Source: an uncultured Clostridia bacterium
GTDB lineage: Bacteria > Bacillota > Clostridia > TANB77 > CAG-508
Assembly (NCBI GenBank): GCA_946529215.1
Contig: CAMMZC010000001.1
Span: forward strand, 158,180 to 222,179
DNA length: 64,000 bases
Direction of reading: 5' to 3'
In this document: one piece after another, positions 3,081-62,688 of the stretch
How positions within the stretch are numbered: position 1 is the first letter of the stretch
How the letters are laid out: the number at the start of each line of letters is the position of its first letter
Position numbers and translations under genes: made by a program
The notes under the pieces: generated by a model
The model's input: the letters and a program-made list of their open reading frames with translations, nothing else
What the model was told of the DNA's origin: nothing
Databases searched by the model: none

Positions 3081-4799
3081 CTATACGTAAATCGTCTGAT
3101 TATTCTTATAAATTACAAGTCCTGGTTTATTACCTGGAACCTTTTTTACAAAACTTACTTTACAATAATCGACTGGCACATTTGAAGAATTTTTTGCCTT
3201 GCTATGTTCAGCTGCAATTCTTGCTGCCTCATAAATTATATTTTCTGGTACAAGTTCATTTGGATTTGTTTTTAAAATAACATGACTTCCATGAACATCT
3301 TTGGTATGAAACCACAAATCATCTTTTTTGGCAAACTTATTGGTTAAATAGTCATTTTCTTTGTTGTTTCTTCCTACATAAATTGTAAAACCATCTATTA
3401 TATATTTTATAGGATTAAATTTTGCAAATTTATCTGAAGTTGTTTTACTTGGTTTTTTCGATTTTGTTTTTTTATTTTCAAAAAATTTTTGAAAAATCTC
3501 ATTTTCTGCAATTTCATTATAAATTTCCTGAACATCTTCAATATTTTTGCAATTTTCGAGTTCATATATTGTACTTTCTATATAATCTATTTCCTCAATA
3601 GTTTCTATTTTTTGCTGTTTTACAATTTCAGATGCATTTTTAAGTTTAGAATATTTTTTAAAAAATCTCTTTGCATTATGTTGTGGAGTATACTTTTTAT
3701 CTAAAGAAATCTCTATTAACTCATTATTTTTGTAATAATTTTCTAAAGAAATTTTATCTACATTATAATTAGGAATTTTATATAAATTTGCAGTAATCAA
3801 TTCCCCATACAATTTATATTTATCCATATTTTTGCATTCAGATAGCTTTTCATCAATATTAACCAGACGTTTTTCATATTTTTTTAAAGTTGATAAAATA
3901 ATATTAAGTAAAGTATTTCTATAATTTATAAAAATCTCACTATTTTCTTTTTTAAAGTAAAAATCATCTAAACTAAAATTCAAAGAAAACTTATTATTAC
4001 TTTCTTCTTTAGCAAAAGTCAAGCAATAATCTTTTGGAATACCATTTTTTTCTGATATGACTTTTATTTCCAAATTCTTTTTATTTAAGATATCTACAAT
4101 AACGTCATAAACACGATGTGCAATGGATTTTGTTGATAAATAATCGTTTTTTGTCTCAAATTGATTTATTACTTCTTTTAGATTCATTAAACTAATTCCA
4201 TTATATTTTTTCGAAATAGAATCTAGTACATCGATATCATCTTCTAGACTTAACTTTGAATAAAAATCTTCAAAGTTTTTCGCTTCTAAAAAATCAAATT
4301 TGTTTCTTGTGGGTTCAAAATATCTAGCTGTAGGATAAATATCTCTTTGAGCATTTTCTTCAATTGATGTATGTCTAATGCTATCAATTATAATTCCATT
4401 TTTATCTATCAAAACTATATTGCTGTGTTTGCTCATAAGCTCTACAATTAAAGTTTTCTTTTCTATTTTATTCGAATTTTCACTGTTTTCTAAATCTATA
4501 AATACTATTCTTTCTAACGCTTTTGTGTATATTTTTTTTATTTTATAACCTAAAATATGCTTACGTAGTAACATACAAAAATTAGGTGCAACTTGCGGAT
4601 TTTTTAGGTTATTTGTTGTTATATGTATCCTATAATTATTTGAAGAAATACATGCTAAAAGTGCTATATTTGTAAAATTTCCATAAAGTCCTAAAACAAC
4701 AGTATTTTTATCTGGTTGATATATTTTATCTATTTTATAATCTATTAAATTTTGCAATTCATCTACAACTTTTTTTGTTACTATTCCATCAAAAGCCAT
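3081..4799 (-). CDS. rqcH: ribosome quality-control protein RqcH (NFACT / FbpA family)
   Basis: MAFDGIVTKKVVDEL N-terminus typical of NFACT-N, and C-terminal DUF814-like WFHTKDVHGSHVILK. The ATG at 4799 is preceded by GAGGAGAG, so the annotated ORF start at 4862 is probably too long. Confidence 0.85.
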   Translation of the reverse strand: MAFDGIVTKKVVDELQNLIDYKIDKIYQPDKNTVVLGLYGNFTNIALLACISSNNYRIHITTNNLKNPQVAPNFCMLLRKHILGYKIKKIYTKALERIVFIDLENSENSNKIEKKTLIVELMSKHSNIVLIDKNGIIIDSIRHTSIEENAQRDIYPTARYFEPTRNKFDFLEAKNFEDFYSKLSLEDDIDVLDSISKKYNGISLMNLKEVINQFETKNDYLSTKSIAHRVYDVIVDILNKKNLEIKVISEKNGIPKDYCLTFAKEESNNKFSLNFSLDDFYFKKENSEIFINYRNTLLNIILSTLKKYEKRLVNIDEKLSECKNMDKYKLYGELITANLYKIPNYNVDKISLENYYKNNELIEISLDKKYTPQHNAKRFFKKYSKLKNASEIVKQQKIETIEEIDYIESTIYELENCKNIEDVQEIYNEIAENEIFQKFFENKKTKSKKPSKTTSDKFAKFNPIKYIIDGFTIYVGRNNKENDYLTNKFAKKDDLWFHTKDVHGSHVILKTNPNELVPENIIYEAARIAAEHSKAKNSSNVPVDYCKVSFVKKVPGNKPGLVIYKNNQTIYV

Positions 4800-5018
4800 A
4801 AGTATCACTCTCCTCTTAAGTATTATATCATATTTGTCAAGTGTATTAAAAGGCAGGAGCACAATTCCTGCCTTTATGTATTACTTTTTGGACAAGCCAC
4901 TCAAAGTAAAACTATAAAACCAAGAATAATACCCCTGTCTTTAAAAATTTAAACAATACTTTATTAATCATTCTAAATCTATAATTTAAAATATTTGCTA
5001 CTTATAATCAAGCATTAC

Positions 5019-5225
5019 TTATCTGTTTATCATATTGTTTTCAACTTGTTGAATCATTTTTTTAACCATATTTCCACCGATTCTACCAGCGTCTCTTGCA
5101 GATATATCTCCATTGTATCCATCTTTTAAGTTAACTCCAACTTCGCTAGCTACTTCATATTTGAATCTATCTAAAGCATTCATAGCTTCTGGAACTAATT
5201 TCTTATTACTATTGTTGTTTGCCAT
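5019..5225 (-). CDS. alpha/beta-type small acid-soluble spore protein (SASP)
   Basis: 68 aa. KLVPEAMNALDRFKYEVASEVGV and GDISARDAGRIGGNMVKKMI are the two conserved SASP alpha/beta blocks. Confidence 0.9.
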   Translation of the reverse strand: MANNNSNKKLVPEAMNALDRFKYEVASEVGVNLKDGYNGDISARDAGRIGGNMVKKMIQQVENNMINR

Positions 5226-5710
5226 TTTAATTCACCTCCTGTTAATATTAACATTTTAGAAAAATCTTAATATTTTTTATTTTATTTATAAGATGACGTA
5301 ATTTAATGTATAAATACATTTTAAAATACAGTAACTCTTATAAATATTGAAAAGCAATTTGCTTTTTCTAAAATTATGATATGCATTTTAAAATTTTATA
5401 AACAGGAAATTTTTTGAAAAATTTAATTTAAAAATTTTTAAAAAATATTGCAATTCATAACTTATAAAATATAAATTTGCATAAGGGAATAATATTATTT
5501 TCCAAAAAAATTTGTAAAGCATTTTTCTAACCAAACAAATTGTGTGAAACTTACTATAATAATACTTCTAATATTGTCGAAATTCGTGAATAAGCCATTT
5601 TTATTTAAAAAGTTTTTTCTTTTGATTAAAAACACCGTCAAAATGCATTGTGATCAATCCTCAGCTTAGTGCCAAAAAATGGGGTGCGTCGAAATTTTTT
5701 TATAAAATTA

Positions 5711-5739
5711 TTGAATTTTTGTAAAAATAAAGTTATAAT
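5711..5739 (+). promoter_or_regulatory. sigma-A type promoter upstream of glmM
   Basis: TTGAAT (5711-5716), 17-nt spacer, TATAAT (5734-5739). Gives a leader of about 155 nt. Confidence 0.5.
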
Positions 5740-5902
5740 GCATATAACAAATTTCAAATTTATATATTAAAAAAGAATATAAATTTTTATAGAAACTGCA
5801 AAAATTAAAAAAAGTCACCAGTGTTATTTTAAATATTTTAAGTGGTTTATAGGTAAATCCTCTATTAAAAACCTAAATATATTATACAAGGATTTGATTA
5901 TA

Positions 5903-7267
5903 ATGAGAAAATATTTTGGAACAGATGGAATTAGAAGAATTGCAAATACTGAATTAACACCAAATTTAGTTTTTAAAGTTGCAAAAGCAGGAGCTTATGT
6001 GCTTTCAAAACATACAAACCATACACCAACTATTTTAATTGGAAGAGATACACGTATTTCTGGCACACTTATTGAAAGTGCAATGGTTGCAGGTTTTTTG
6101 AGTTATGGTGCAAATGTTAAACTTCTTGGAGTAATTCCAACACCTGCAGTTGCATATTTAACAAGAAAATTAAATGCAGATGCAAGTGTTGTAATTTCTG
6201 CATCACACAATACCTACGAATTCAATGGAATTAAATTTTTTAGTAATAAAGGCACAAAAATTTCAGATGATTTAGAAGAAGAAATTGAAGAAATTATGGA
6301 GTCTAATAAATTAGACGATTTAACCGCTGTTGGCGATAAAATTGGTATATCTGAATATGCTTTAGATTTAGTAAATGAATATGTATATTTCTTTAGAAAA
6401 AATTTTGACGATGTTTTTGAAAAATATAATAATAATAAATTTATTGTTGGAATAGATACCGCAAATGGTGCCACTTACAAAGTTGCAGAAAAAGTATTTA
6501 AATCTTTAGGGATTAATTATAAAATAATTAACAATTCGCCTAATGGAATAAATATCAATCAGAATTGTGGTTCTACTCATCTGGAAGGATTAAAAAAATT
6601 TGTAGTAGAAAACAATTTAAGTCTTGGAATTGCCTATGATGGTGATGGTGACAGATGTCTTGCAATTGATGAAAATGGAGAAGAAATTGATGGAGACAAA
6701 TTAATGGCTATAATTTCTCAAAATCTAAGAAAACACGGAAAGCTAAATAAAGACACAATTGTCGGAACTGTAATGAGTAATCTTGGACTAAATAAATATT
6801 GTAGAGATAATGACTTAGAATTTTTACAAACAAAAGTTGGAGACAGATATGTTTTAGAAGAGATGCAAAAAAACGGATTTAATTTAGGTGGTGAGCAATC
6901 TGGTCATATAATTTTGCTTGATTATAACCCTACAGGAGACGGAATTTTAACATCTTTAATGCTTATAAAATCAATTTTTGAAGAAACCAAAAAAGCTTCA
7001 GAATTAGGAACATTAGTTAAAAAATACCCTCAAATTTTGGTTAATGCCAAAGTAAATTCAGACAAAAAATATGATTATGAAAAAGATGAAGAAATAAAAA
7101 CAGAAATAACAAAACTAGAAAAAGAATTTGCAGGAAATGGCAGAGTATTAATTAGGCCTTCTGGCACAGAACCTCTTGTTAGAGTAATGATTGAAGGTGA
7201 AAATCAAGAATATATTTCTCAAAAAGCAACAGAACTTGCAAAATTCATTGAAGAGAAATTAAAATAA
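5903..7267 (+). CDS. glmM: phosphoglucosamine mutase
   Basis: MRKYFGTDGIRR start, active-site SASHNTYEFNGIKFF, GDGDRCLAID metal loop. The ATG at 5903 follows AAGGA. Confidence 0.95.
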   Translation: MRKYFGTDGIRRIANTELTPNLVFKVAKAGAYVLSKHTNHTPTILIGRDTRISGTLIESAMVAGFLSYGANVKLLGVIPTPAVAYLTRKLNADASVVISASHNTYEFNGIKFFSNKGTKISDDLEEEIEEIMESNKLDDLTAVGDKIGISEYALDLVNEYVYFFRKNFDDVFEKYNNNKFIVGIDTANGATYKVAEKVFKSLGINYKIINNSPNGININQNCGSTHLEGLKKFVVENNLSLGIAYDGDGDRCLAIDENGEEIDGDKLMAIISQNLRKHGKLNKDTIVGTVMSNLGLNKYCRDNDLEFLQTKVGDRYVLEEMQKNGFNLGGEQSGHIILLDYNPTGDGILTSLMLIKSIFEETKKASELGTLVKKYPQILVNAKVNSDKKYDYEKDEEIKTEITKLEKEFAGNGRVLIRPSGTEPLVRVMIEGENQEYISQKATELAKFIEEKLK

Positions 7268-7359
7268 ATGTTACAGCAAATATTTATAAAGTTTCATAAT
7301 AAGACCACTAAAAAGTAAAAACGTTCTATAAAACACAACAGGAAATTTTTCAAAAAGTC

Positions 7360-7388
7360 TTGCCAAATGTTAAAATATGTGATAAAAT
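7360..7388 (+). promoter_or_regulatory. sigma-A type promoter of rpsT
   Basis: TTGCCA, 17 nt, TAAAAT. Confidence 0.5.
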
Positions 7389-7429
7389 AGTTGATGTTAT
7401 ATAAAAGAGCAATAAAAGGAGGTGCAAAA

Positions 7430-7699
7430 ATGCCAAACATTAAATCAGCTAAAAAAAGAGTTAAAATAATAGAAAAGAAAACTTTAAGAAACAATATGAT
7501 CAAATCAGCTTACAAAACATCAGTTAAAAAATTCGAAGCTGCTATAGAAGCTGGAAATTTAGAAGAAGCTAAAACACTATTTTCAGAAGCTACAAAGAAA
7601 ATAGATCAAGCTTGTTCAAAAGGTGTTATTGTTAAAAATACTGCAGCTAGAAAAAAATCAAATCTAGCTAAAAAATTAAATACTGCAACTGTAGCTTAA
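7430..7699 (+). CDS. rpsT: 30S ribosomal protein S20
   Basis: [21 protein letters not shown] is the S20 signature N-terminus. AAAGGAGGTG RBS precedes the ATG at 7430. Confidence 0.95.
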
Positions 7700-7745
7700 G
7701 ATTACAGTAATTTGTTTAAAAAATTATGCATAGTTTTTTAAAATA

Positions 7746-7787
7746 AAAAGCTTTTGACTTTAAATTGTCAAATGCTTTTTATTTTTA
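7746..7787 (+). terminator. rho-independent terminator after rpsT
   Basis: Stem AGCTTTTGAC / GTCAAATGCT followed by TTTTTATTTTT. Confidence 0.6.
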
Positions 7788-7868
7788 TTAAAAACAAATC
7801 ATTTTAAATTTCCAATATAACTATTAAATCAAGATTTAACTGTAATTTGTTTAATTTTTCAAAAATTA

Positions 7869-7897
7869 TTGAAATATTATCAAAATTATTATATAAT
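7869..7897 (+). promoter_or_regulatory. sigma-A promoter of serS
   Basis: TTGAAA (7869-7874), 17 nt, TATAAT (7892-7897). Confidence 0.55.
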
Positions 7898-7959
7898 ATA
7901 GTTCATAAATATAACAGATTCATCCAAGCATAAAGCATAAATGAAAGGAAGTATGTATT

Positions 7960-50930: not shown

Positions 50931-51635
50931 TCACACGCTCCGTCTTTGTTCTAGAAATTCAATTATTTTTTTATTATAATTCAAATTTTCACTATACATA
51001 TTTTCAATATCAACAATATCTTTTAAATCATTATTTTTAAATATTTGTTGAATATCTATATCTTTCGAAAAATATGTAACCTCTTTATATACTTTGGATT
51101 TTTTATTTTTAGAAAAAATAGCTATAATCTTGTTGTCTTCAATTATGTTATTTTTCAAATTGTCTTGAATTAATGTTTTAGGATAATAATATTTCATTTT
51201 TTCATTATTAGAATTTAACTTTGAAAAACCTAAACAGAAGTGTGTATTTCCAACGACTTTCTCAATTTTAATATTTAACTTATTTTCATTATATTCACCT
51301 ATTCTTTTAGCACTTTTACTAATATACATTGCATTTTCTAAAATTTCTAATTTTAATTGAGTAAACTGCTTATCTTTAATTTTTATACTATTAGGTGAAA
51401 TTCTATTTTTTAAACATTCTTTAAAAAACTCTTCTGCATTCTTTTTATACTTTATTCCTGTAAAATGTAAAAAGTTTTGCCCTAAAAATAATGTTTCTAT
51501 AAATTCTATTTTTCTATTTTTCTTGTCTTTAAAAATAAATATAATATTTTTATTTAAAAGATTCGTCTTATATTTTTTTGCGCTTTCACATATTCTATTT
51601 ATTATTTCTTTGTTGTTATAATTATTGTAATACAT
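50931..51635 (-). CDS. uncharacterised 234-aa protein, candidate nuclease toxin (NFLHFTG motif, possibly PBECR/BECR-fold)
   Basis: RBS TAGGAGATAT before the ATG at 51635. Motif block FIETLFLGQNFLHFTGIKY ... RIGEY ... HFCLGFSK ... YYYPKTLIQD recalls (from memory, unverified) the PBECR4 family. Preceded by a repeat array and a terminator hairpin. Confidence 0.5.
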   Translation of the reverse strand: MYYNNYNNKEIINRICESAKKYKTNLLNKNIIFIFKDKKNRKIEFIETLFLGQNFLHFTGIKYKKNAEEFFKECLKNRISPNSIKIKDKQFTQLKLEILENAMYISKSAKRIGEYNENKLNIKIEKVVGNTHFCLGFSKLNSNNEKMKYYYPKTLIQDNLKNNIIEDNKIIAIFSKNKKSKVYKEVTYFSKDIDIQQIFKNNDLKDIVDIENMYSENLNYNKKIIEFLEQRRSV

Positions 51636-53661: not shown

Positions 53662-54897
53662 CTAAAATATGCTTTTATTATTTTCTGCCAATTCTCTTAT
53701 TTTTGTTTTAGAACTATATCTTCCTTCAGACTTAAAGTTATCTATTTGTTTCATAACTCCATAATCGACTAACTTTCTCTTGTAATATTTTATTAAACCT
53801 GAATAATCATATTTTGTATCTTGTATTTTTGTCATATCATTTTTTATAAACAATACTTCTTTTTGCTTAATATATTCTATATAATCTGTCTCTTTAAGTT
53901 TTTCAATGCCTTTAAATTCTTGCCAAAAATTCTTAAAGCTTTCTCTTTCTTTCATATCATTCCAATAAACTTTAGTTGATAACATTCTTGTATTATACTC
54001 TTCTATTACATTTATTAAAGTATTGTAAGCTTTTTCTCTCTTTGCAGCAATTTTTGTATCTTGTACCAAAGCTCTTGCATCTTTTAAAATCTTATTATAA
54101 CACTGTTCTGCAACAGCAAGTGGTAAACTATGTGTGAATAATTTTCTGCTAATTGCTAGTAAAAACATATTTTTTTCTATTTGGTCTCTTTGATCTAATT
54201 TTCCAACAGAAAATCCTTCATATTTATCATATTCTTTTTTTATCTCGTTATATTGATCTTTATCTATTTCAAATTTTAAAGGTAAAATATTTCTAATGTA
54301 TTCTTCCAATGTATTAAAAATTTTTATATAAATCCACTCTTTGCTTGAGTCATAAACATTTGTAGTATCTGCAAGTTTTATAGAATAATTTTTTAAAATT
54401 CCTTTATATAACCAATCCATTTTAGATACATAAAATTTATTGTATTTATCTATTAATTTATCTTTTTTTGAAATTCTTACATTTTGAGCATCAAGTTCTA
54501 TTAAATATTTTTGTTTTCTAAATTTATATTCTACATATTCATTTTCTTTTAAAGATATTACCCCATAATACCTAGATAATGCATCTTTTTCGAAATCTGT
54601 CGCAGTATTATTCTTTACTTTTTTATAAACTGAATCCATTACATATTTATCAAGTGACTCTAAATATGCAGTATATGCTGATTCATATTTTTTTTCTAAG
54701 TTATCTTTTTCATCTGCTTCATAGTCATCAGATGTAAATTTATCAAATGCTTTAATCATAAGATTTCTTTTGCTAGAAATCAACAATCCATTTATTCCTA
54801 CTTTTGTTGGTATTAAAATTTTATTTATTGTAGTTGTTAATTTTGTAAAAAATGTTTTATTCGCTCCTGTTATTTTCAAACTCTTCTCTTCTACCAT
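53662..54897 (-). CDS. hypothetical protein (411 aa, Lys/Tyr/Glu-rich)
   Basis: Long ORF between yqfD and ybeY with 14-nt spacing to yqfD. No motif recognised. Confidence 0.5.
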   Translation of the reverse strand: MVEEKSLKITGANKTFFTKLTTTINKILIPTKVGINGLLISSKRNLMIKAFDKFTSDDYEADEKDNLEKKYESAYTAYLESLDKYVMDSVYKKVKNNTATDFEKDALSRYYGVISLKENEYVEYKFRKQKYLIELDAQNVRISKKDKLIDKYNKFYVSKMDWLYKGILKNYSIKLADTTNVYDSSKEWIYIKIFNTLEEYIRNILPLKFEIDKDQYNEIKKEYDKYEGFSVGKLDQRDQIEKNMFLLAISRKLFTHSLPLAVAEQCYNKILKDARALVQDTKIAAKREKAYNTLINVIEEYNTRMLSTKVYWNDMKERESFKNFWQEFKGIEKLKETDYIEYIKQKEVLFIKNDMTKIQDTKYDYSGLIKYYKRKLVDYGVMKQIDNFKSEGRYSSKTKIRELAENNKSIF

Positions 54898-54911: not shown

Positions 54912-56096
54912 TCAAAATTCAATTTTTTTATATGTTTCTATATTTTCTAATACCTCGTAGGTTACACACACTTCAACACTATCTTCATGCTCAATTGTAT
55001 CAACTTTTGTTTCAAGTATGTTTTCTTTATTTGCTATATCTTTTTCAATCGCTCTGCTTAATTGTTCTTTTCCTAATTCAATTGCTTCTTCTTTATTGTA
55101 TTTTTGCATTTCTTTTACTTGTTCTTTATTTGTTATTTCCACTACAGAAATAGGCAAATAAAAATTAGAAAATACTTTTAATTTTTTTTCTGTATATATT
55201 GTATCATAAATTTTAAATTTTGAAAGGGTTTTGTAAAAATTTATTTGAAAATTATTGAATTTTATTTGAAACTTTTTTTCTTCATCTCCTGTATCCTTTA
55301 GTTTTTCTTGATTTAGATAAATTCTCTCACTTTTATAATATTTTATTTTTGCCTGAACGAATCCAAGACTATGCACATATCTTTTGTCTGTATATTTTCC
55401 TTCCATATATCCTGCAATTAAAATATCTCCTTCATTCACTTCATCTCCTTCATTTACTACAGCTGTACCATTTTGCGCAATTATTTTTGTAATAATACCA
55501 GATTTTTTTGCTACTATATTGCAGTAATCCGAATTATCTAGTAAATCAGGTTTTTCATCTGCTTTTACAGCTTTTATAATTACATTTGTACCTTTTAAGT
55601 CAATTCCAATCCATGAAATATCATTCCTTTTAAGCCTAAGTTCATTAATTAATTTTTCTTTTTCTATTTTTGATTTAAGTACCCCTTTTCTTAATCCCAA
55701 ATCTGCTAAATCTTCCTCAATTTGCTCTATTTGTAAATTATCTTCAACCTGAACTTCTATATTCCACACATATTTTGAACTTGTATATATAGCAAATGCA
55801 ATTATAATTAAAAAAATTGCAAATATTTTTCTTTTTTTATATCTATGTAAAATAAACGGTATTCCTTTTTTCTTATTTATTTTTATTTTGCAATTTGTTT
55901 TTCTTGCTATATTTTTAAGTTTTTTAAAATCTTTTATTCCTATATTTAAGTAGAGTTTTACTCCTTTTTTTCTTTTTAAATTCCATATAAATATTTTTTT
56001 GTTTTGGCATATATTTATAAATCGCTCAATATAGTAGCCTTCAACCTCTATTCTTACATAGCCAAATATTAATCTTAGCAAAATTCCTATATACAT
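54912..56096 (-). CDS. yqfD: sporulation protein YqfD
   Basis: GYVRIEVEGYYIERFINICQNKKIFIWNLKRK N-terminus, a central TM, and YqfD-like C-terminal domain. AAAGGAG RBS. Confidence 0.85.
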   Translation of the reverse strand: MYIGILLRLIFGYVRIEVEGYYIERFINICQNKKIFIWNLKRKKGVKLYLNIGIKDFKKLKNIARKTNCKIKINKKKGIPFILHRYKKRKIFAIFLIIIAFAIYTSSKYVWNIEVQVEDNLQIEQIEEDLADLGLRKGVLKSKIEKEKLINELRLKRNDISWIGIDLKGTNVIIKAVKADEKPDLLDNSDYCNIVAKKSGIITKIIAQNGTAVVNEGDEVNEGDILIAGYMEGKYTDKRYVHSLGFVQAKIKYYKSERIYLNQEKLKDTGDEEKKFQIKFNNFQINFYKTLSKFKIYDTIYTEKKLKVFSNFYLPISVVEITNKEQVKEMQKYNKEEAIELGKEQLSRAIEKDIANKENILETKVDTIEHEDSVEVCVTYEVLENIETYKKIEF

Positions 56097-56137: not shown

Positions 56138-56208
56138 ATCCACCTCACATCCGTTATTGTCGATTCTTTTGCACATTAACTTCTTTATTTAATTTTATGT
56201 TTTAAGCG

Positions 56209-56250
56209 CAAAAAAATACCTACAGATTTAAGTACTAAAATCTGTAGATA
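56209..56250 (-). terminator. rho-independent terminator of the alpha-2-macroglobulin-like gene
   Basis: Minus-sense stem TATCTACAGATTT/AAATCTGTAGGTA followed by UUUUUUU. Confidence 0.7.
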
Positions 56251-56261
56251 TTTTCAACTCT

Positions 56262-59200
56262 CTATTTCACATTAATTTCTATTGGCATAGATTTGCCTTC
56301 AACATTAGGATTGTAATAGTCATAAGCTCTTACATTCATACCAGTTATTTTCACAGGATAGCTTGCTCTAAAGTTTACGCCCAAGTTTACCACTTGACCT
56401 ACTTCAAAGTTTCTTAAATAGATATTAACTCCTGTGTATGACATCTCATATTTTTCTATTATACCTTTACTTTCTAATAACATTAAACTTTCTTCATTTA
56501 CTACAAATCCTTGTGGTATAGCAATTGTAACCATACCATTTAAAATAGTATTTTCACTTCTGTTTATTACTCTAACATTTGTTTTTAATAATTCATTTAC
56601 TTTTAAATTATTATTACATTGTACAGATACTTCGATATTATCATTTTGAGTATTTACCTTTTCATAAGGTATATAATACTCTTCAACAACTTCATAATAT
56701 GCATTTCCTTTTTCCATATCTATACTTAGTTTATTTTCTTTATTTAAATTTTCAAATGTTACTTCATATAGTTCAAGTGGATTATCTTTAATTTCTATTT
56801 TTCTTTCATCTGAATTCATTTTTACTGCTATTGTTTGATTTTCTAAACTTCCTTTACTATTGTTTTCATTTAATGCTTTTAATACAAGAATTGTTGCTTG
56901 TGTACTATACCATGTTCCCCTTGTATCTTTTTTACTTATTAAATAATCTATAAACCTTTTATTAGTTTCTTTGCTATATGAACCTTTAGATAAAGCCATT
57001 GATGTAAGTGCAACAGTTTGTATAGTTTGAACATCATATCTTGATCCATAATAATCCATAGTATTTGATGTAATATATGCTTTATTTCCATCTATATTTG
57101 TGTTATTTACCAATCTTTTTAGTACATTATTTAATTCTTTATCTTTTACATTAGCTAAAATATTTGCTACTAATGCAAGTGTATAATTATCATCTATGCT
57201 GTCTATTTTTCCTTTTAAATAAGTTACAGATTTACTTAATCTTTCATCATTTGGATTACTTTCTGATAATGCCCAGGTTATATAAGCATTTAATGCTAAA
57301 TTTTCTTTTGAATTAGCTCCTCCTAGATGATAACCTGTAATCGTAAATGTACCATTCGTATTTTGCTTTTTGTATAAATAATTTGTCATTTTTTCTATAA
57401 CACTTTTATCTACATTATATACTTTACTCAAATCAGTTACTTCCATAAGACCATAAGCTGTTAAAACTGTTTCTGCAGGAGATTCTCCATATAGTGAATA
57501 TCCGCCACTTTCTCCTTTAACCTCATAAGTTAAAAGTTTTTGATATCCTGAAGATATATAAGAAATTGCCTTATTTCTTATCTCTTCATTTACTATCCCT
57601 TTATCTTCCAAATATTTTAATGCTAAAATATTTGGATATAAACTTGAAGAAATTTGCTCAAAACATCCTGTTGGCATTCTAAATATATTTTCCATTCCTT
57701 CAACTATTTGTGACATCGTTCCTGAATAGATTTTTACTTTTGCTTTTGCAGTATTTTCTATTATATCATCTAGAAATAATATATCTTCTGATATATCTCC
57801 ATCCAAGTTACCTGTAGAAACTACCTTTTCTAGCTTATATCCTTTTGTAGAAACATTACATTCTTTTTCAACTATATCTGTCAATGTATTGCTAGATACT
57901 TCTGCTCTAAATTTATTATTACCAGCTTTTAAAACTGTTATTGGTACATATACCATATTCGAAGACTTTGCATTTACATTTATTGTTATATTATTATTAT
58001 CTATTTTAAACCAATCTTCTTGCTTAACTTTTAATGTTGTATTTATTTGTTTATCTGTGTAATTATATATTGTTACTGGAATACTTACATTATCAGTTTC
58101 GACTAAATTTTTTGGTAATTCAAAATCTATAAAAAACTCTTTAAATACTTTTACATCATTTAATACTCCATATCCTATTCTTCCATCTTTTGTATTTCCA
58201 ATTGTTTGAATAGTCCATGTTGTAATATTATCACTTAATTTTAAATTTAAATTAGCTTGTCCATTTGTTGTTATTAATTCAGGAATAAAGCACATACTTT
58301 CTAAAAATAAATTTCTTATATTATCGTCTTTTGTAGCTTTTACTTTTTCTCCTATTTTAACTTCATCTTTTACTGAATTTGTTTCATCAATACTTGTTGC
58401 AAAATTAACTCCAAATCTATCAAAAATTGATGAATTAGATTTATCTGTTTCTGCTGCTCCAACTATATCTTGTGGGTTTATTCCAATTGGATCTTCACCT
58501 GTTGCAGTTATCATATCCACTTCTCTTGAAACTGAAGAATTGCTAATAGAACCAGAAAAATTTTTAATTGCAATTATTGTATTATATATTAAAAACATAA
58601 TTCCTAATATAATTAATACTAATAATAAAATTGTTTTGGAATTATTCTCTTTTAATTTATCTTCATTTGATTTATTAAACAAATAATTAAAACCATATAT
58701 ACCAATCAAAATTATTGGTACTATTATTCCATCTATACTTATTATTCCTTGTATAAATGCACCTATAGTAAAAGAAATAACAAGTGCTCCAATAAATTTT
58801 AGAAAATATATTATCTCATTTGTTATAATTATCATGTACTTGTTTATTTTTAAATTTTTTGCTTCACTTACTCTAGCTAAAATTGCATAGGTTAGTAATA
58901 ATATAGCAAAAATAATGCCAATCCATAAAGCTGATACTTCTAAAACAATTATTAAAAATCCAAATAACATAAATACTAAATATACTAAAATTATTGTTAA
59001 TGATGTTTTAAACAGTTTTTCATTTAGTTTAAATAATAGCGCAATATATATTGCCAAACCTATTGCTGTTATTAATACAACTGGAATCCATGTATAATCT
59101 ATTCTCCAAAAATATTCTTCTTTTATACTTACGAATAATGTTAATAATATTAAGTCAAACATTGCAAAATTAACTATATGTTTTATAACATTTCTAAAAA

Positions 59201-61205
59201 ACTTAAACTTTCTACACAAAAATGTTATAATTGTTATTACAATAATTGCAATCGAAATAATTGAAATTATAGCTGATTTTTGTTCTTGCTTTTTATTATA
59301 CATTTCTGTTTCCGATATATTTATATCTTTATTTCCTTGTTTTAGAAGAAGAGCCATCACTGTCTGTTCTGATACATCATCCATTATACAAGAATATAAA
59401 GTAGCTGCATCTAGATCATTTGAAAACTTAATATTTTGCAGAGCTAATTTCACATTATCTATAGATAGATCGTTATTGGCTAAGCTCAAAATAGAATTAT
59501 CTAACATACTTACAAGTAGTGCTGCATCTGTTCCATTTTTATTTTCATCTACTGCATTAAAGGAAATATTTATATTTTCTCTAGGTTTATATTGTTTTTT
59601 ATCTGTGTTTATACTTATATTTAGTTGTTTGGATGGTTTTATAAAAATTGTCTTTTTAAATGTGTTTTTGTTTGAATTATAAAAATAATAATTACTTTTA
59701 TTTGTATTATCTGTTACATAGATATCAACTAATCCATAAGTATCATCCAAATTTATTGTTGTATCTTCTAAATCTGTACTTAACATTTTTATTAATTTAT
59801 CATCTTTAAAGAAATAAATATTTTTTGCACTTTCTGTTATAGAAGAAATTTTTATTTTTATATCTTCACCTTGCTGATATTTTGCTTTATTAGTTGAAAC
59901 CAAAAGATTTCTTTGCTCTGTTTCTAAAGATATATTTTTTCTTACTTGATTATTCCTTATATCTTGTGCAACTATATTGAATTGTCTCGTGTTATTTGAA
60001 TAATTTTTATAACTTTCATAATAATTTGTATTATTATTTATTTGTTGTATATCTATTGAAAATTTCCCAATACCATTTTCATCTGTTGCTATTTGTTTTG
60101 TAAAATTATTTGATGATATTGTAACATAAGTCTTTACTGGCGTTCCATCTGCTTTGTTGGTAAATACATATATATCATTCTTTTTTCCAATAGCTAATTT
60201 TCCATATTCAGGAAGTAACTTTACTTCAAATATATCTGTTCCTGCTGTAAAACTACTTGATGCTTCTACATAATAGTTTGAAGAATCTACTGCTTCAACT
60301 TTTATATTATAAGTTTTAGCTTCTTTTATTTGATAATCTATTGTTGCTATTCCTTGGAAATCTGTTTTTAAATCTTTATATTTTTCATTATTAATAAAAA
60401 CCTTAAGATTAGCATTTTTAACAGTTTCTCCAAAAAAATAATTTGAATGAAATGTTATTTTGGCAGTTTGTCCAACTAAATAGTTTTGTTTATCGTAATC
60501 TATTTTCACTTCATATTTAGGAGTAACATAAGGATTTACTTTAAATTGTTTTGTTGTTTCGTTTTCTTTTGTTTTTACTACCAATTTATATAAACCACTA
60601 TTTACTTCATTAGCTAGTGAAAATTTCCCACTAATTATACCATAATCAGATGATTTAACATTTTCATTATATACTTTATTGTCATTTCCATCATATATAC
60701 TAACATTTATGTCTTTACTTATAGGTTCATCATTTTGTTTACTAGTTAATAAAGCTCTGTAATTTACTATATCTCCAGGTTTATATATTCCCTTATCTAA
60801 AGTAATAGTAACATTTTCAAGATTTCCATCTGAAATATAAATTTCTTTTTGTATAGTATCTTTTCCTGCTTTGCTAGATACTTTGGCTTCTAAAAGATAA
60901 TTTCCAGTCTCAATCTTTGGAATACTTAAAATAGCACTATTACCATCATATTTTATTTTTACGTCTTTTATAGTTTTCCCTTTTGAATCTAGTAATTTTA
61001 AATTTGTTTTTGTATCTAAATCTACGCCTTTGTCTTGTGCAATAATAGATACATATAAATCACTTTCTGTATAAGCTTTACTTGATGTATTAATTTTTAT
61101 ACATTGTTTACCACTAACAATCCAATTGTATGTATTAAATATAGCTATTATAACAATTGCAATAAAAACTAATAAAACTATACATTTTGCAACTTTTTTT
61201 CGCAT
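56262..61205 (-). CDS. alpha-2-macroglobulin-family thioester protein with an internal multi-pass membrane domain
   Basis: N-terminal anchor, then repeated Ig-like (MG-type) segments. About 8 hydrophobic helices are encoded at about 58565-59280. Further MG-like segments and the thioester motif PTGCFEQ follow (CFEQ codons 57654-57665). Start is ATG 61205, 5 nt after GGGGG. Confidence 0.8.
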   Translation of the reverse strand: MRKKVAKCIVLLVFIAIVIIAIFNTYNWIVSGKQCIKINTSSKAYTESDLYVSIIAQDKGVDLDTKTNLKLLDSKGKTIKDVKIKYDGNSAILSIPKIETGNYLLEAKVSSKAGKDTIQKEIYISDGNLENVTITLDKGIYKPGDIVNYRALLTSKQNDEPISKDINVSIYDGNDNKVYNENVKSSDYGIISGKFSLANEVNSGLYKLVVKTKENETTKQFKVNPYVTPKYEVKIDYDKQNYLVGQTAKITFHSNYFFGETVKNANLKVFINNEKYKDLKTDFQGIATIDYQIKEAKTYNIKVEAVDSSNYYVEASSSFTAGTDIFEVKLLPEYGKLAIGKKNDIYVFTNKADGTPVKTYVTISSNNFTKQIATDENGIGKFSIDIQQINNNTNYYESYKNYSNNTRQFNIVAQDIRNNQVRKNISLETEQRNLLVSTNKAKYQQGEDIKIKISSITESAKNIYFFKDDKLIKMLSTDLEDTTINLDDTYGLVDIYVTDNTNKSNYYFYNSNKNTFKKTIFIKPSKQLNISINTDKKQYKPRENINISFNAVDENKNGTDAALLVSMLDNSILSLANNDLSIDNVKLALQNIKFSNDLDAATLYSCIMDDVSEQTVMALLLKQGNKDINISETEMYNKKQEQKSAIISIISIAIIVITIITFLCRKFKFFRNVIKHIVNFAMFDLILLTLFVSIKEEYFWRIDYTWIPVVLITAIGLAIYIALLFKLNEKLFKTSLTIILVYLVFMLFGFLIIVLEVSALWIGIIFAILLLTYAILARVSEAKNLKINKYMIIITNEIIYFLKFIGALVISFTIGAFIQGIISIDGIIVPIILIGIYGFNYLFNKSNEDKLKENNSKTILLLVLIILGIMFLIYNTIIAIKNFSGSISNSSVSREVDMITATGEDPIGINPQDIVGAAETDKSNSSIFDRFGVNFATSIDETNSVKDEVKIGEKVKATKDDNIRNLFLESMCFIPELITTNGQANLNLKLSDNITTWTIQTIGNTKDGRIGYGVLNDVKVFKEFFIDFELPKNLVETDNVSIPVTIYNYTDKQINTTLKVKQEDWFKIDNNNITINVNAKSSNMVYVPITVLKAGNNKFRAEVSSNTLTDIVEKECNVSTKGYKLEKVVSTGNLDGDISEDILFLDDIIENTAKAKVKIYSGTMSQIVEGMENIFRMPTGCFEQISSSLYPNILALKYLEDKGIVNEEIRNKAISYISSGYQKLLTYEVKGESGGYSLYGESPAETVLTAYGLMEVTDLSKVYNVDKSVIEKMTNYLYKKQNTNGTFTITGYHLGGANSKENLALNAYITWALSESNPNDERLSKSVTYLKGKIDSIDDNYTLALVANILANVKDKELNNVLKRLVNNTNIDGNKAYITSNTMDYYGSRYDVQTIQTVALTSMALSKGSYSKETNKRFIDYLISKKDTRGTWYSTQATILVLKALNENNSKGSLENQTIAVKMNSDERKIEIKDNPLELYEVTFENLNKENKLSIDMEKGNAYYEVVEEYYIPYEKVNTQNDNIEVSVQCNNNLKVNELLKTNVRVINRSENTILNGMVTIAIPQGFVVNEESLMLLESKGIIEKYEMSYTGVNIYLRNFEVGQVVNLGVNFRASYPVKITGMNVRAYDYYNPNVEGKSMPIEINVK

Positions 61206-61356
61206 AAAAACCCCCATTCTGATGCAGCAACACGCCTTAACTTGCATCCTTTTATTTTCTAAAAATAGTTTATCATATATGACAAATAATTACAATGTTT
61301 TTATGCAAAAAAATAAACATACTATTATAGTTAATTAGGATTTTTCATTCTATTTT

Positions 61357-61629
61357 TTATTCTATTTGTCTTTCAATATCTAACGACTCAATCTTTCCTG
61401 TAATCTTTAAACAATCTTCTGTCATCTTGTCAAGATTTAAACCAAATCCATTAATATTTATACTTCCTATATATGTGCTAAGTTTAATATAATAATCCTC
61501 ATACCCTAGAATTCCCTTATAATTTTCTATTATAAGTTCATTAAATCCTGTAATTGTAATTTTGGGTTCATTTGTATATGTTTCTTTTGGAAGCTCAAGC
61601 ATTCGATTTATTCTATTTATTCCTTTCAT
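61357..61629 (-). CDS. yqfC: sporulation protein YqfC (YabP/YqfC family)
   Basis: 90 aa. LELPKETYTNEPKITITGFNELIIENYKGILGYEDYYIKL matches the YqfC pattern. Confidence 0.8.
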   Translation of the reverse strand: MKGINRINRMLELPKETYTNEPKITITGFNELIIENYKGILGYEDYYIKLSTYIGSININGFGLNLDKMTEDCLKITGKIESLDIERQIE

Positions 61630-61880: not shown

Positions 61881-62688
61881 CTATTGCACAAACTCCTCCA
61901 AACTCCTAAATTCATAGCCTTCTTCTTTAACTTTTTTTATCATTTTATCCATAATATCTGCATTTGTTTTTGATGTTGCGTGTAAAAGCATTATTTCTCC
62001 ATTATGCAAATTAGAAATTATTTTGTCCATTGCGTCACTTTCACTTGGTTGCTTTTTTTCATCCCAATCTACATACGCAAATGACCACATTACTGTTTTA
62101 TAGCCTAAATCTTCACATAAACTTAAAGTTCTTTCACTATATTCGCCTTTTGGTGGTCTTAAGTATTTCATTTCATAATTATATTTTTCATATACAGATT
62201 GATGTAGTCCCATTACTTCTTTTTTTAACTCATCATCTGAAAGGCTTGGCATCGACTTGTGATTAATGGTGTGATTGCCGAACTATATGTTTTTCGTTTA
62301 TCATTCTCTGCAATAAATCAGATGCAGTATTTACATAATGAGCTGTAATAAAAAACGTTCCTTGCACATTATTCTCCTTTAGAGCATCTAGAATTTTTGT
62401 AGTATAACCTGCCTCATAGCCTAAGTCAAAAGTTAAATAAATATATTTTTTGTCTGACGATCCAAGTGCCATTCCATTATATTTATTTATTAGTTCCACA
62501 TTTTTTTGGCCTAAATTCGGTTGTTCATGATTATTTTTCCTTTGTATTCCCCATTCTATTTTTTTGTTATTTAAACCTGTCTCAGAATTCGTAGCTAATC
62601 CATTTTCATTTACTCCTGACATGTAACTTAATGTTATTATTAATGTAAGTAATCCACCTAAAATTATAGTTTTAATTTGCTTTTTCAT
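61881..62688 (-). pseudogene. PdaA-like polysaccharide deacetylase (NodB domain) disrupted by a 1-nt frameshift
   Basis: ORFs 62263-62688 and 61881-62252 are the N- and C-terminal parts of one deacetylase. Deleting one base near 62280 (GTTCGGCAA to GTTGGCAA) restores HIVGNHTINHKSMPSLSDDE, the conserved NodB His motif. Confidence 0.8.

Follow-up and report, generated by a model that had tools for sequence, protein, structure and literature searches.

A gene on the minus strand (56262..61205) of a 64,000-nucleotide stretch of DNA from an uncultured Clostridia bacterium (GCA_946529215.1, contig CAMMZC010000001.1, positions 158,180 to 222,179; hereafter the window) encodes a 1647-aa protein that we assign to the alpha-2-macroglobulin (A2M)/TEP/complement superfamily of thioester proteins, and not to the ECAM type known from E. 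coli. A2M-family proteins are, in textbook accounts, soluble or lipid-tethered protease traps and opsonins. The window protein carries a polytopic membrane block, predicted to cross the membrane eight times, which is an insertion within the bait-region domain and is followed by a hypervariable linker that is likely the bait region. This membrane-embedded layout is undescribed in the searched literature, although the superfamily itself is known: no Gram-positive or polytopic A2M came to light in full-text literature searches, and in the reviews published up to 2026 the bacterial A2Ms are periplasmic proteins of Gram-negatives, anchored in the inner membrane (PMC12939704; PMC4498604). A first-pass annotation of the window had proposed a thioester-type A2M homologue, distinct from ECAM and undescribed in its architecture, with an anchor, macroglobulin (MG) repeats, a block of helices and a thioester half in that order. 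These proposals held, and the strand can now be given as minus.

A family profile was searched against the PDB sequences. CD109 was the best match (5.6e-70), followed by A2ML1, A2M, TEP1 and C3, and ECAM was absent among the 60 matches listed. In the profile alignments residues 72-391 of the window protein ran alongside residues 40-394 of the C3 beta chain, in register with MG1-MG4, and residues 129-297 alongside CD109 149-321; the family alignment reached the C-termini of both CD109 and A2M. Foldseek of an AlphaFold model of residues 436-1125 also gave CD109 as the best match (5.5e-15), followed by C5, C3, A2ML1 and, further down, ECAM, collinear over about 710-750 columns. The six MG domains that the protein is predicted to have before the bait-region domain are the eukaryotic count; bacterial A2Ms have eight there (PMC4498604). 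BLASTP against E. coli YfhM, the ECAM protein, gave 19% identity over 368 aa (E 1e-5). YfhM matches the Pfam families bMG1, A2M_bMG2, bMG3, bMG5, bMG6 and bMG10 and only one third of TED_complement, and none of the Pfam bMG families was matched by the window protein. A lipobox-like motif was found in the first 35 residues of none of 98 full-length family members, and LPXTG in the last 60 residues of none of the 120 listed sequences. In E. coli K-12 pbpC adjoins yfhM; tblastn with E. coli PbpC gave no match anywhere in the window (64 kb), nor at 45 related loci searched together with at most 8 kb of flank on each side. Judged by sequence, the protein is nearer the eukaryotic type (CD109, A2ML1, A2M, TEP1, C3) than it is to ECAM, and it is not a version of ECAM fitted to a Gram-positive cell.

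The protein begins with a hydrophobic segment (residues 1-30; 61116..61205, on the minus strand like all parts of the gene), in which MRKK is followed by a 16-residue hydrophobic stretch. By Kyte-Doolittle hydropathy the segment spans residues ~5-27, with its peak at 5-23; it is found in every full-length homologue and is followed by a conserved W-I-V-x-G-K-Q. It may act as a signal anchor, inserted N-in, or as a cleavable signal peptide, a cleavage site between V-S-G and K at 30-33 being possible, and if it is cleaved the membrane block would be the sole membrane attachment. Residues 31-569 (59499..61115) comprise MG1-MG5 and the first part of MG6, as placed by Pfam matches to MG2 (residues 134-223, E 9.9e-17), MG3 (226-292, weak) and A2M_BRD (436-575), by the profile alignments and by AlphaFold beta strands. 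The helical start of the bait-region domain (residues 570-625; 59331..59498; LVSMLDNSIL...ALLLKQ), with four short AlphaFold helices at 570-622, is the best-conserved segment of the protein, fixed in length, with 72% mean pairwise identity and many invariant residues. It is followed by the membrane block (residues 639-882; 58560..59291), by the disordered linker (residues 883-962; 58320..58559), which is rich in S, N, D, T and E, and by the second part of MG6 with MG7 (residues 963-1120; 57846..58319), where Pfam A2M matches residues 971-1059 (E 1.9e-19). A putative CUB domain with an inserted thioester domain (TED) is placed at residues 1121-1520 (56646..57845); the TED itself, residues 1160-1447 (window 56865-57728), is matched by Pfam TED_complement over profile positions 8-311 of 312 (E 2.2e-39). 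The profile scan proposed in the first-pass annotation thus matched MG2, A2M and TED_complement, with A2M_BRD marginal. The predicted C-terminal MG8, of the receptor-binding type (residues 1521-1647; 56265..56645), carries a YDYYNP (Y1628-P1633) that is invariant in the family alignment; A2M_recep matches this domain in homologues, with no significant match in the window protein itself. YDYY also occurs in the C-terminal domain of A2M.

The thioester motif, GCFEQ (residues 1180-1184; 57654..57668), with Cys1181 and Gln1184, lies as PTGCFEQ inside the TED_complement match. All 25 aligned sequences have GCFEQ and all 120 listed homologues have CFEQ; the motif aligns with GCGEQ of CD109 and CLEQ of ECAM. 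The surrounding PTG...SSSLYP is invariant as well, even in sequences at 39-45% identity. Because GCFEQ, PTG...SSSLYP and YDYYNP are all unchanged at that distance, the pattern argues for selection on a working thioester. Elsewhere in the TED, residue 1293 (57327-57329, minus strand) is His in 19 and Asn in 4 of the 25 sequences. In an alignment made by eye, and so as a lead only, His1293 falls near the residue that is the catalytic His in C3 and Asn in A2M and that sets the nucleophile preference of the thioester. In C3 the catalytic His favours reaction with hydroxyl groups.

Kyte-Doolittle hydropathy resolves the membrane block into eight peaks, from residue 644 to 883, the hydropathy segments being ~639-661, 673-693, 706-725, 736-755, 759-781, 792-813, 825-844 and 858-882. 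Its extent, 58560-59291, agrees closely with the 58565-59280 first assigned to the eight helices. AlphaFold of the block alone, from 34 sequences, gave confident helices (predicted local distance difference test score, pLDDT, 86.7; pTM 0.73). A Pfam search with the block alone at E up to 10 returned noise only, and Foldseek of the block model against the PDB had a best E of 4.4, with TM-scores of 0.2 or below. A block profile searched against 1.84 billion representatives gave 29 matches, consisting of family members or their fragments and one apparently unrelated weak match, P0140, which is a DUF805-like false positive. These 29 thus include no relative in which the block stands alone or is fused to other domains. 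An internal 4+4 or 2+2 duplication was likewise rejected, hhalign giving it a probability of only 2-9%. The block has no conserved buried charged residues, and the handful of polar residues that are conserved gather at those ends of the transmembrane helices (TM) that are predicted to face the cytoplasm: KH..N before TM2, KKIFRTS between TM3 and TM4, and NYLFN after TM7. On our best reading the block would be mainly a lineage-specific anchor and platform.

To orient the block, loop charges were averaged across 34 homologues. The mean net charges of loops 1-2, 3-4, 5-6 and 7-8 were +3.1, +3.0, +2.9 and +1.6, and the remaining block loops and both flanks were net negative. Because the positive loop charges alternate in this way, the positive-inside rule predicts eight passes with both halves of the protein outside the cell. 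Eight passes also agree with an N-in first helix (MRKK) and with the need for the two MG6 halves to meet. The structure models weigh on the other side. DSSP on the AlphaFold models counted seven helices: TM3 and TM4 formed one 49-residue helix in the model of the block alone, and in the 436-1125 model they were parted by a single residue, despite the conserved K/R-rich segment between them. With seven passes the TED half would be cytoplasmic. We regard a TM3-TM4 hairpin as physically the more plausible. The original proposal that eight helices leave both halves outside thus fits the loop charges but not the AlphaFold helix count, and the even number of passes is inferred.

The site of the insertion is best seen in the model of residues 436-1125, which was built from 75 sequences and has a mean pLDDT of 73. 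It opens with beta domains, MG5 and the beginning of MG6, which lead through four short helices to the membrane helices (pLDDT 83-91); a disordered stretch comes next, and the model closes with more beta domains, the remainder of MG6 followed by MG7. Within the disordered stretch the 85 residues 884-968 have pLDDT below 50. By AlphaFold and Foldseek, the flanks of the block are two halves of one MG6/bait-region unit. The insertion falls between Pfam A2M_BRD, which ends at 575, and Pfam A2M, which starts at 971, and the gap between these two matches is about 395 residues here, compared with about 70 in ECAM. In human A2M the bait-region domain sits inside MG6, and the short helices with which the human domain starts have their counterpart by position in residues 570-625 of the window protein (PMC9181621).

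The linker is 60-109 aa long in 116 homologues, and 58-109 aa over all the sequences compared, and is the least conserved segment of the protein, with 15% pairwise identity compared with 64-72% in its flanks. It ends at an invariant R-N-x-F-L-E-S-M-C-F-x-P-E, with which the second part of MG6 begins and which aligns with VRKHFPETWIW just past the CD109 bait. Bait regions have been described as "largely disordered" (PMC4498604; PMC9181621), and since the disorder and hypervariability of the linker match the bait regions so described, it is likely the bait region of this protein. Because the flanks of the block are collinear with those of known relatives and a bait-like linker follows it, the block is an insertion within the bait-region domain, upstream of the linker, and not a replacement of the bait. 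The first-pass annotation had put the helices roughly where the bait region would be expected; a conserved polytopic block does occupy that position, but not in place of the bait.

Among 5.8 billion proteins searched, 331 matched below 1e-10, and 120 of these were listed. The listed homologues, at 45-74% identity, are nearly all 1630-1700 aa long and matched over their full length, and every one of them has, besides CFEQ, 6-8 hydropathy peaks at the position of the block. When one genome per species was scanned, 44 loci came up, all of which keep the layout. The survey of this architecture that had been suggested for Clostridia thus led to Clostridia in 44 of 44 cases: the sources are uncultured metagenome-assembled genomes (MAGs) from animal guts (rabbit, Hadza human, sheep, roe deer, chicken, mouse), and Candidatus Scatovivens is among the carriers. 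The family is narrow, with about 44 species-level genomes, all of uncultured organisms, and the sole database name of its members is "hypothetical protein". Plasmids are not evident carriers, as tblastn against 72,556 plasmids gave only a weak MG2 match in Meiothermus. Sporulation genes among the neighbours (YabP, YqfD, a Spo0A_C-domain protein and SpoIIIAA) bear out the Gram-positive-type host that had been supposed, and the host Clostridia are spore-forming Firmicutes that, judged by their taxonomy, would have a single membrane.

The reading we favour, at slightly better than even chances, is that the protein is a membrane-embedded, surface-exposed thioester protease trap of gut Clostridia, with the hypervariable linker as bait. 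The N-terminus would be inserted N-in, or be cleaved, so that MG1-MG6 lie outside the cell. Within the bait-region domain the chain would then cross the membrane eight times and re-emerge outside, where the linker of 58-109 aa would join TM8 to the second half of MG6, with MG7, CUB, TED and MG8 following, also outside. A host digestive protease or the protease of a competitor would cut the bait linker and so untether the C-terminal module from TM8. The untethering would set off the usual A2M rearrangement, exposing the Cys1181-Gln1184 thioester, which would capture the protease covalently at the membrane surface, and the N-terminal chain and the membrane block would hold the complex on the cell. 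The block would in this way do the job of ECAM's lipid anchor and of confinement by the outer membrane. The habitat of all loci, animal guts rich in proteases, is counted in favour of the trap.

Several points weigh against this reading. What the analysis shows is the domain composition and its conservation, the place of the insertion, the motif, and a linker that is both disordered and hypervariable; the parity of the passes, thioester formation, bait function and protease trapping are deduced from homology and anatomy. A trap beneath the peptidoglycan would be reachable only by proteases small enough to cross the wall. The A2M_BRD match scores 22.2 bits, compared with a curated cut-off of 22.7, and the CUB domain is placed by position only, the window protein having no separate Pfam CUB match. 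Pairwise identity in the block is low, 28%, and the block has no known relatives, so that to see in it no more than an anchor is to argue from absence. Clustering of the neighbours at 46 loci revealed no conserved partner gene and at least three different contexts, and pbpC, too, is missing from the window and the 45 related loci in which it was sought.

Among described proteins, human CD109 (PDB 8s3o, 9fx2/9fx3) is built in the same order, from six MG domains through the bait region, MG7 and a CUB holding the TED to a C-terminal MG, and shares the CxEQ motif and attachment to the membrane at the cell surface; it is eukaryotic, however, is held by a C-terminal glycosylphosphatidylinositol lipid, lacks membrane-spanning helices and has its bait in a soluble loop. 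Human A2M and A2ML1 have the same domain order, a disordered bait and TED_complement and A2M_recep-type domains, but they are soluble plasma or epithelial proteins, tetrameric in the case of A2M, with no membrane segment and with the motif CGEQ. ECAM (YfhM) and Salmonella SaA2M, of type I, are bacterial, monomeric and outward-facing at the cytoplasmic membrane, with CxEQ and a disordered bait, and a role in defence against foreign proteases has been proposed for them; ECAM has ten MG domains, is anchored in the Gram-negative inner membrane and operates with PBP1C (PMC4498604). The window protein lacks the ten MG domains, the bacterial-specific bMGs, the lipobox and pbpC, and has the eight-TM block; ECAM resides in the periplasm of a diderm cell, whereas the window family belongs to Clostridia MAGs at every locus. 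Pseudomonas MagD, of type II, likewise belongs to the A2M superfamily, is large and contains MG domains; it is associated with the inner membrane and works within a Mag operon complex. It has no thioester (PMC5764988), whereas the window family has the invariant motif and no conserved operon. Insect TEP1 and complement C3/C4/C5 share the TED/MG/CUB architecture, a His/Asn-type residue near the thioester and an insertion (anaphylatoxin domain, ANA, or bait) at the same position in MG6, but these are soluble opsonins, whose insert is an anaphylatoxin domain or short bait and never a membrane domain. Finally, the Gram-positive thioester adhesins (TIE; SfbI and Cpa TEDs) also bear a Cys-Gln thioester on a Gram-positive surface; their TED fold is unrelated, they are anchored through LPXTG and have no MG array, whereas the TED of the window protein is of the complement type.

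An alternative to a trap is that the thioester couples the protein to its own wall, to host mucus or to other cells, as in C3/TEP opsonins or the Gram-positive thioester adhesins. Such coupling would be in keeping with the conserved His1293, close to the site of the C3 catalytic His, and with the presence of TEP1, C3 and cell-surface CD109 among the closest solved relatives. We nevertheless consider it unlikely: the protein has one or two membrane anchors beneath the wall and no LPXTG, a hypervariable disordered linker is typical of a bait for multiple proteases, and the TED is of the complement/A2M type and not of the adhesin family.

A role in sporulation was also considered, in which the mother cell would make the protein, which would face the forespore intermembrane space, a compartment resembling a periplasm, and there protect or shape cortex assembly. 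The order of genes in the window is a split polysaccharide deacetylase gene, a yabP-like gene, the A2M-type gene, yqfD, a 411-aa ORF (open reading frame) and ybeY, which places the gene between a YabP-family gene and yqfD. Four close relatives instead have it immediately 5' of polysaccharide deacetylase-yabP-yqfD, and in a clade at 40% identity spoIIIAA and spoIIIAB are found a few genes downstream. The context varies across the family, however. The yabP/yqfD linkage is limited to the window and the four close relatives, the gene in the 40%-identity clade sits between mreB/miaB-like/85-aa ORF and gap-pgk-tpi-gpmI, so that its nearest neighbours are housekeeping genes, and at other loci the neighbours are unrelated and often encode large surface proteins. 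The gene in the window comes with an intergenic region and a terminator of its own, and a promoter scan around it gave fewer matches than shuffled sequence, making it uninformative in such AT-rich DNA (25% GC). The sporulation link of the gene is weak, and we hold a sporulation role to be quite unlikely.

It is just as improbable, in our judgement, that the thioester machinery is vestigial or put to a different use and that the protein is mainly a structural scaffold of the surface or membrane. Any function is so far a prediction from sequence and models, the type II protein MagD works without a thioester (PMC5764988), and the middle residue of the motif is Phe where most eukaryotic members have Gly. 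Against a vestigial site stands the invariance of GCFEQ, PTG...SSSLYP and YDYYNP in the distant sequences described above, a sign of purifying selection at the thioester.

The membrane block might also be an active sensor, channel or transducer that passes bait cleavage into the cell, which would make the protein a protease sensor and not a trap alone. The architecture is kept family-wide although one helix would suffice as an anchor, the conserved polar residues are gathered at cytoplasmic helix ends, and the bait is attached directly to TM8. On the other hand, the cytoplasmic loops are at most about 18 residues long and hold no output domain, there is no conserved partner gene, buried charges are not conserved and sequence conservation is low, and Pfam, Foldseek against the PDB and the profile search found no likeness in fold or sequence to a transporter or receptor. 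We regard an active block as very doubtful. A related idea, to which we give a small chance, is that bait cleavage or the A2M-type rearrangement is coupled mechanically to the membrane domain, by which the cell would sense proteolytic attack; if true, this coupling would be a bacterial, membrane-integrated counterpart of the danger sensing of complement and TEPs. Finally, that the protein is an artefact, through an error of assembly or sequencing that fused two genes (a concern raised in the first-pass annotation) or through an AT-rich codon bias that mimics hydrophobic segments, given that the ~25% GC host DNA is enriched for Ile, Phe and Lys codons, is next to impossible, because a continuous ORF of ~1650 aa with the same layout recurs in the 120 listed protein clusters and in 44 independent genome assemblies, and the flanks of the block are halves of one unit.

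As to the gene itself, the ORF list shows a single uninterrupted minus-strand ORF, 56262..61247 when an upstream in-frame ATG is included. The likely start is the ATG at 61205, and less so that at 61247, because a GGGGG ribosome-binding site lies 6-10 nt 5' of ATG 61205 and the proteins of relatives begin MKKK, matching that start; ATG 61247 has almost no ribosome-binding site. The complete coding sequence is then 56262..61205 (1647 aa plus stop), and the product begins MRKKVAK. A 110-nt AT-rich spacer lies 5' of the gene. On its 3' side an intrinsic terminator (56208..56247, minus strand), a 10-bp perfect hairpin and then a T run, stands 15 nt past the stop codon; it was read directly from the sequence, a terminator scan having flagged that hairpin on the plus strand only. 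The gene looks like its own transcription unit.

Several features of the neighbouring DNA were recorded. The yabP-like (yqfC-type) gene and yqfD (window 61357-61629 and 54912-56096, minus strand) are split by the 5-kb A2M-type gene and are adjacent in loci L002, L015 and L025; the separation points to a local rearrangement or insertion. The polysaccharide deacetylase gene (window 61881-62688, minus strand) is split between two frames, ORF 62263-62688 covering Pfam profile positions 4-61 and ORF 61881-62252 positions 72-124, and it is a single ORF of 267-307 aa in L002, L003, L015 and L025; the split copy is a frameshift pseudogene or a sequencing error. The 411-aa ORF between yqfD and ybeY (53662-54897, minus strand) has no Pfam match and keeps its position in L002, L015 and L025 (33-69% identity). 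A gene with a PBECR4 domain, a phage barnase/EndoU/colicin-like nuclease (50931-51635, minus strand), stands among housekeeping genes and has no counterpart in the related loci.

At the related loci, an ORF of about 85 aa without a Pfam match lies directly upstream of the A2M-type gene, on the same strand, in L016 (5561-5815) and in 15 other loci of the 40%-identity clade, where it may be either a partner or just a syntenic neighbour. In L002 a large surface protein with a papain-family cysteine protease domain and Big_3 repeats (4611-7901) is encoded directly upstream of the A2M-type gene, and L003 has a 1048-aa ORF in the equivalent position, alike by size and position. A protease beside a putative protease trap is worth noting, but the protease is identified in L002 only, the L003 ORF resembling it in size and position. 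In L001 an agr-like module (AgrB, histidine kinase and LytTR response regulator; 4735-7693) lies directly upstream, and parts of it recur in L002 and L025 (neighbour cluster c28).

In sum, these findings suggest that an A2M scaffold with a polytopic domain inside its bait-region domain can operate as a machine integral to the membrane. A bait with one end fixed to a membrane helix would be a natural test of how bait untethering drives activation. That the family is nearer CD109/A2M/TEP than ECAM reopens the relationship between the thioester proteins of bacteria and animals: a eukaryote-like six-MG family that is seen only in Clostridia of animal guts may mark gene exchange between animals and bacteria, or it may be the bacterial lineage closest to the metazoan thioester proteins. 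The narrowness of the family and its uncultured hosts limit immediate experiments and the reach of these conclusions. For the uncultured gut Clostridia that carry it, the protein would be a possible defence against host digestive proteases.

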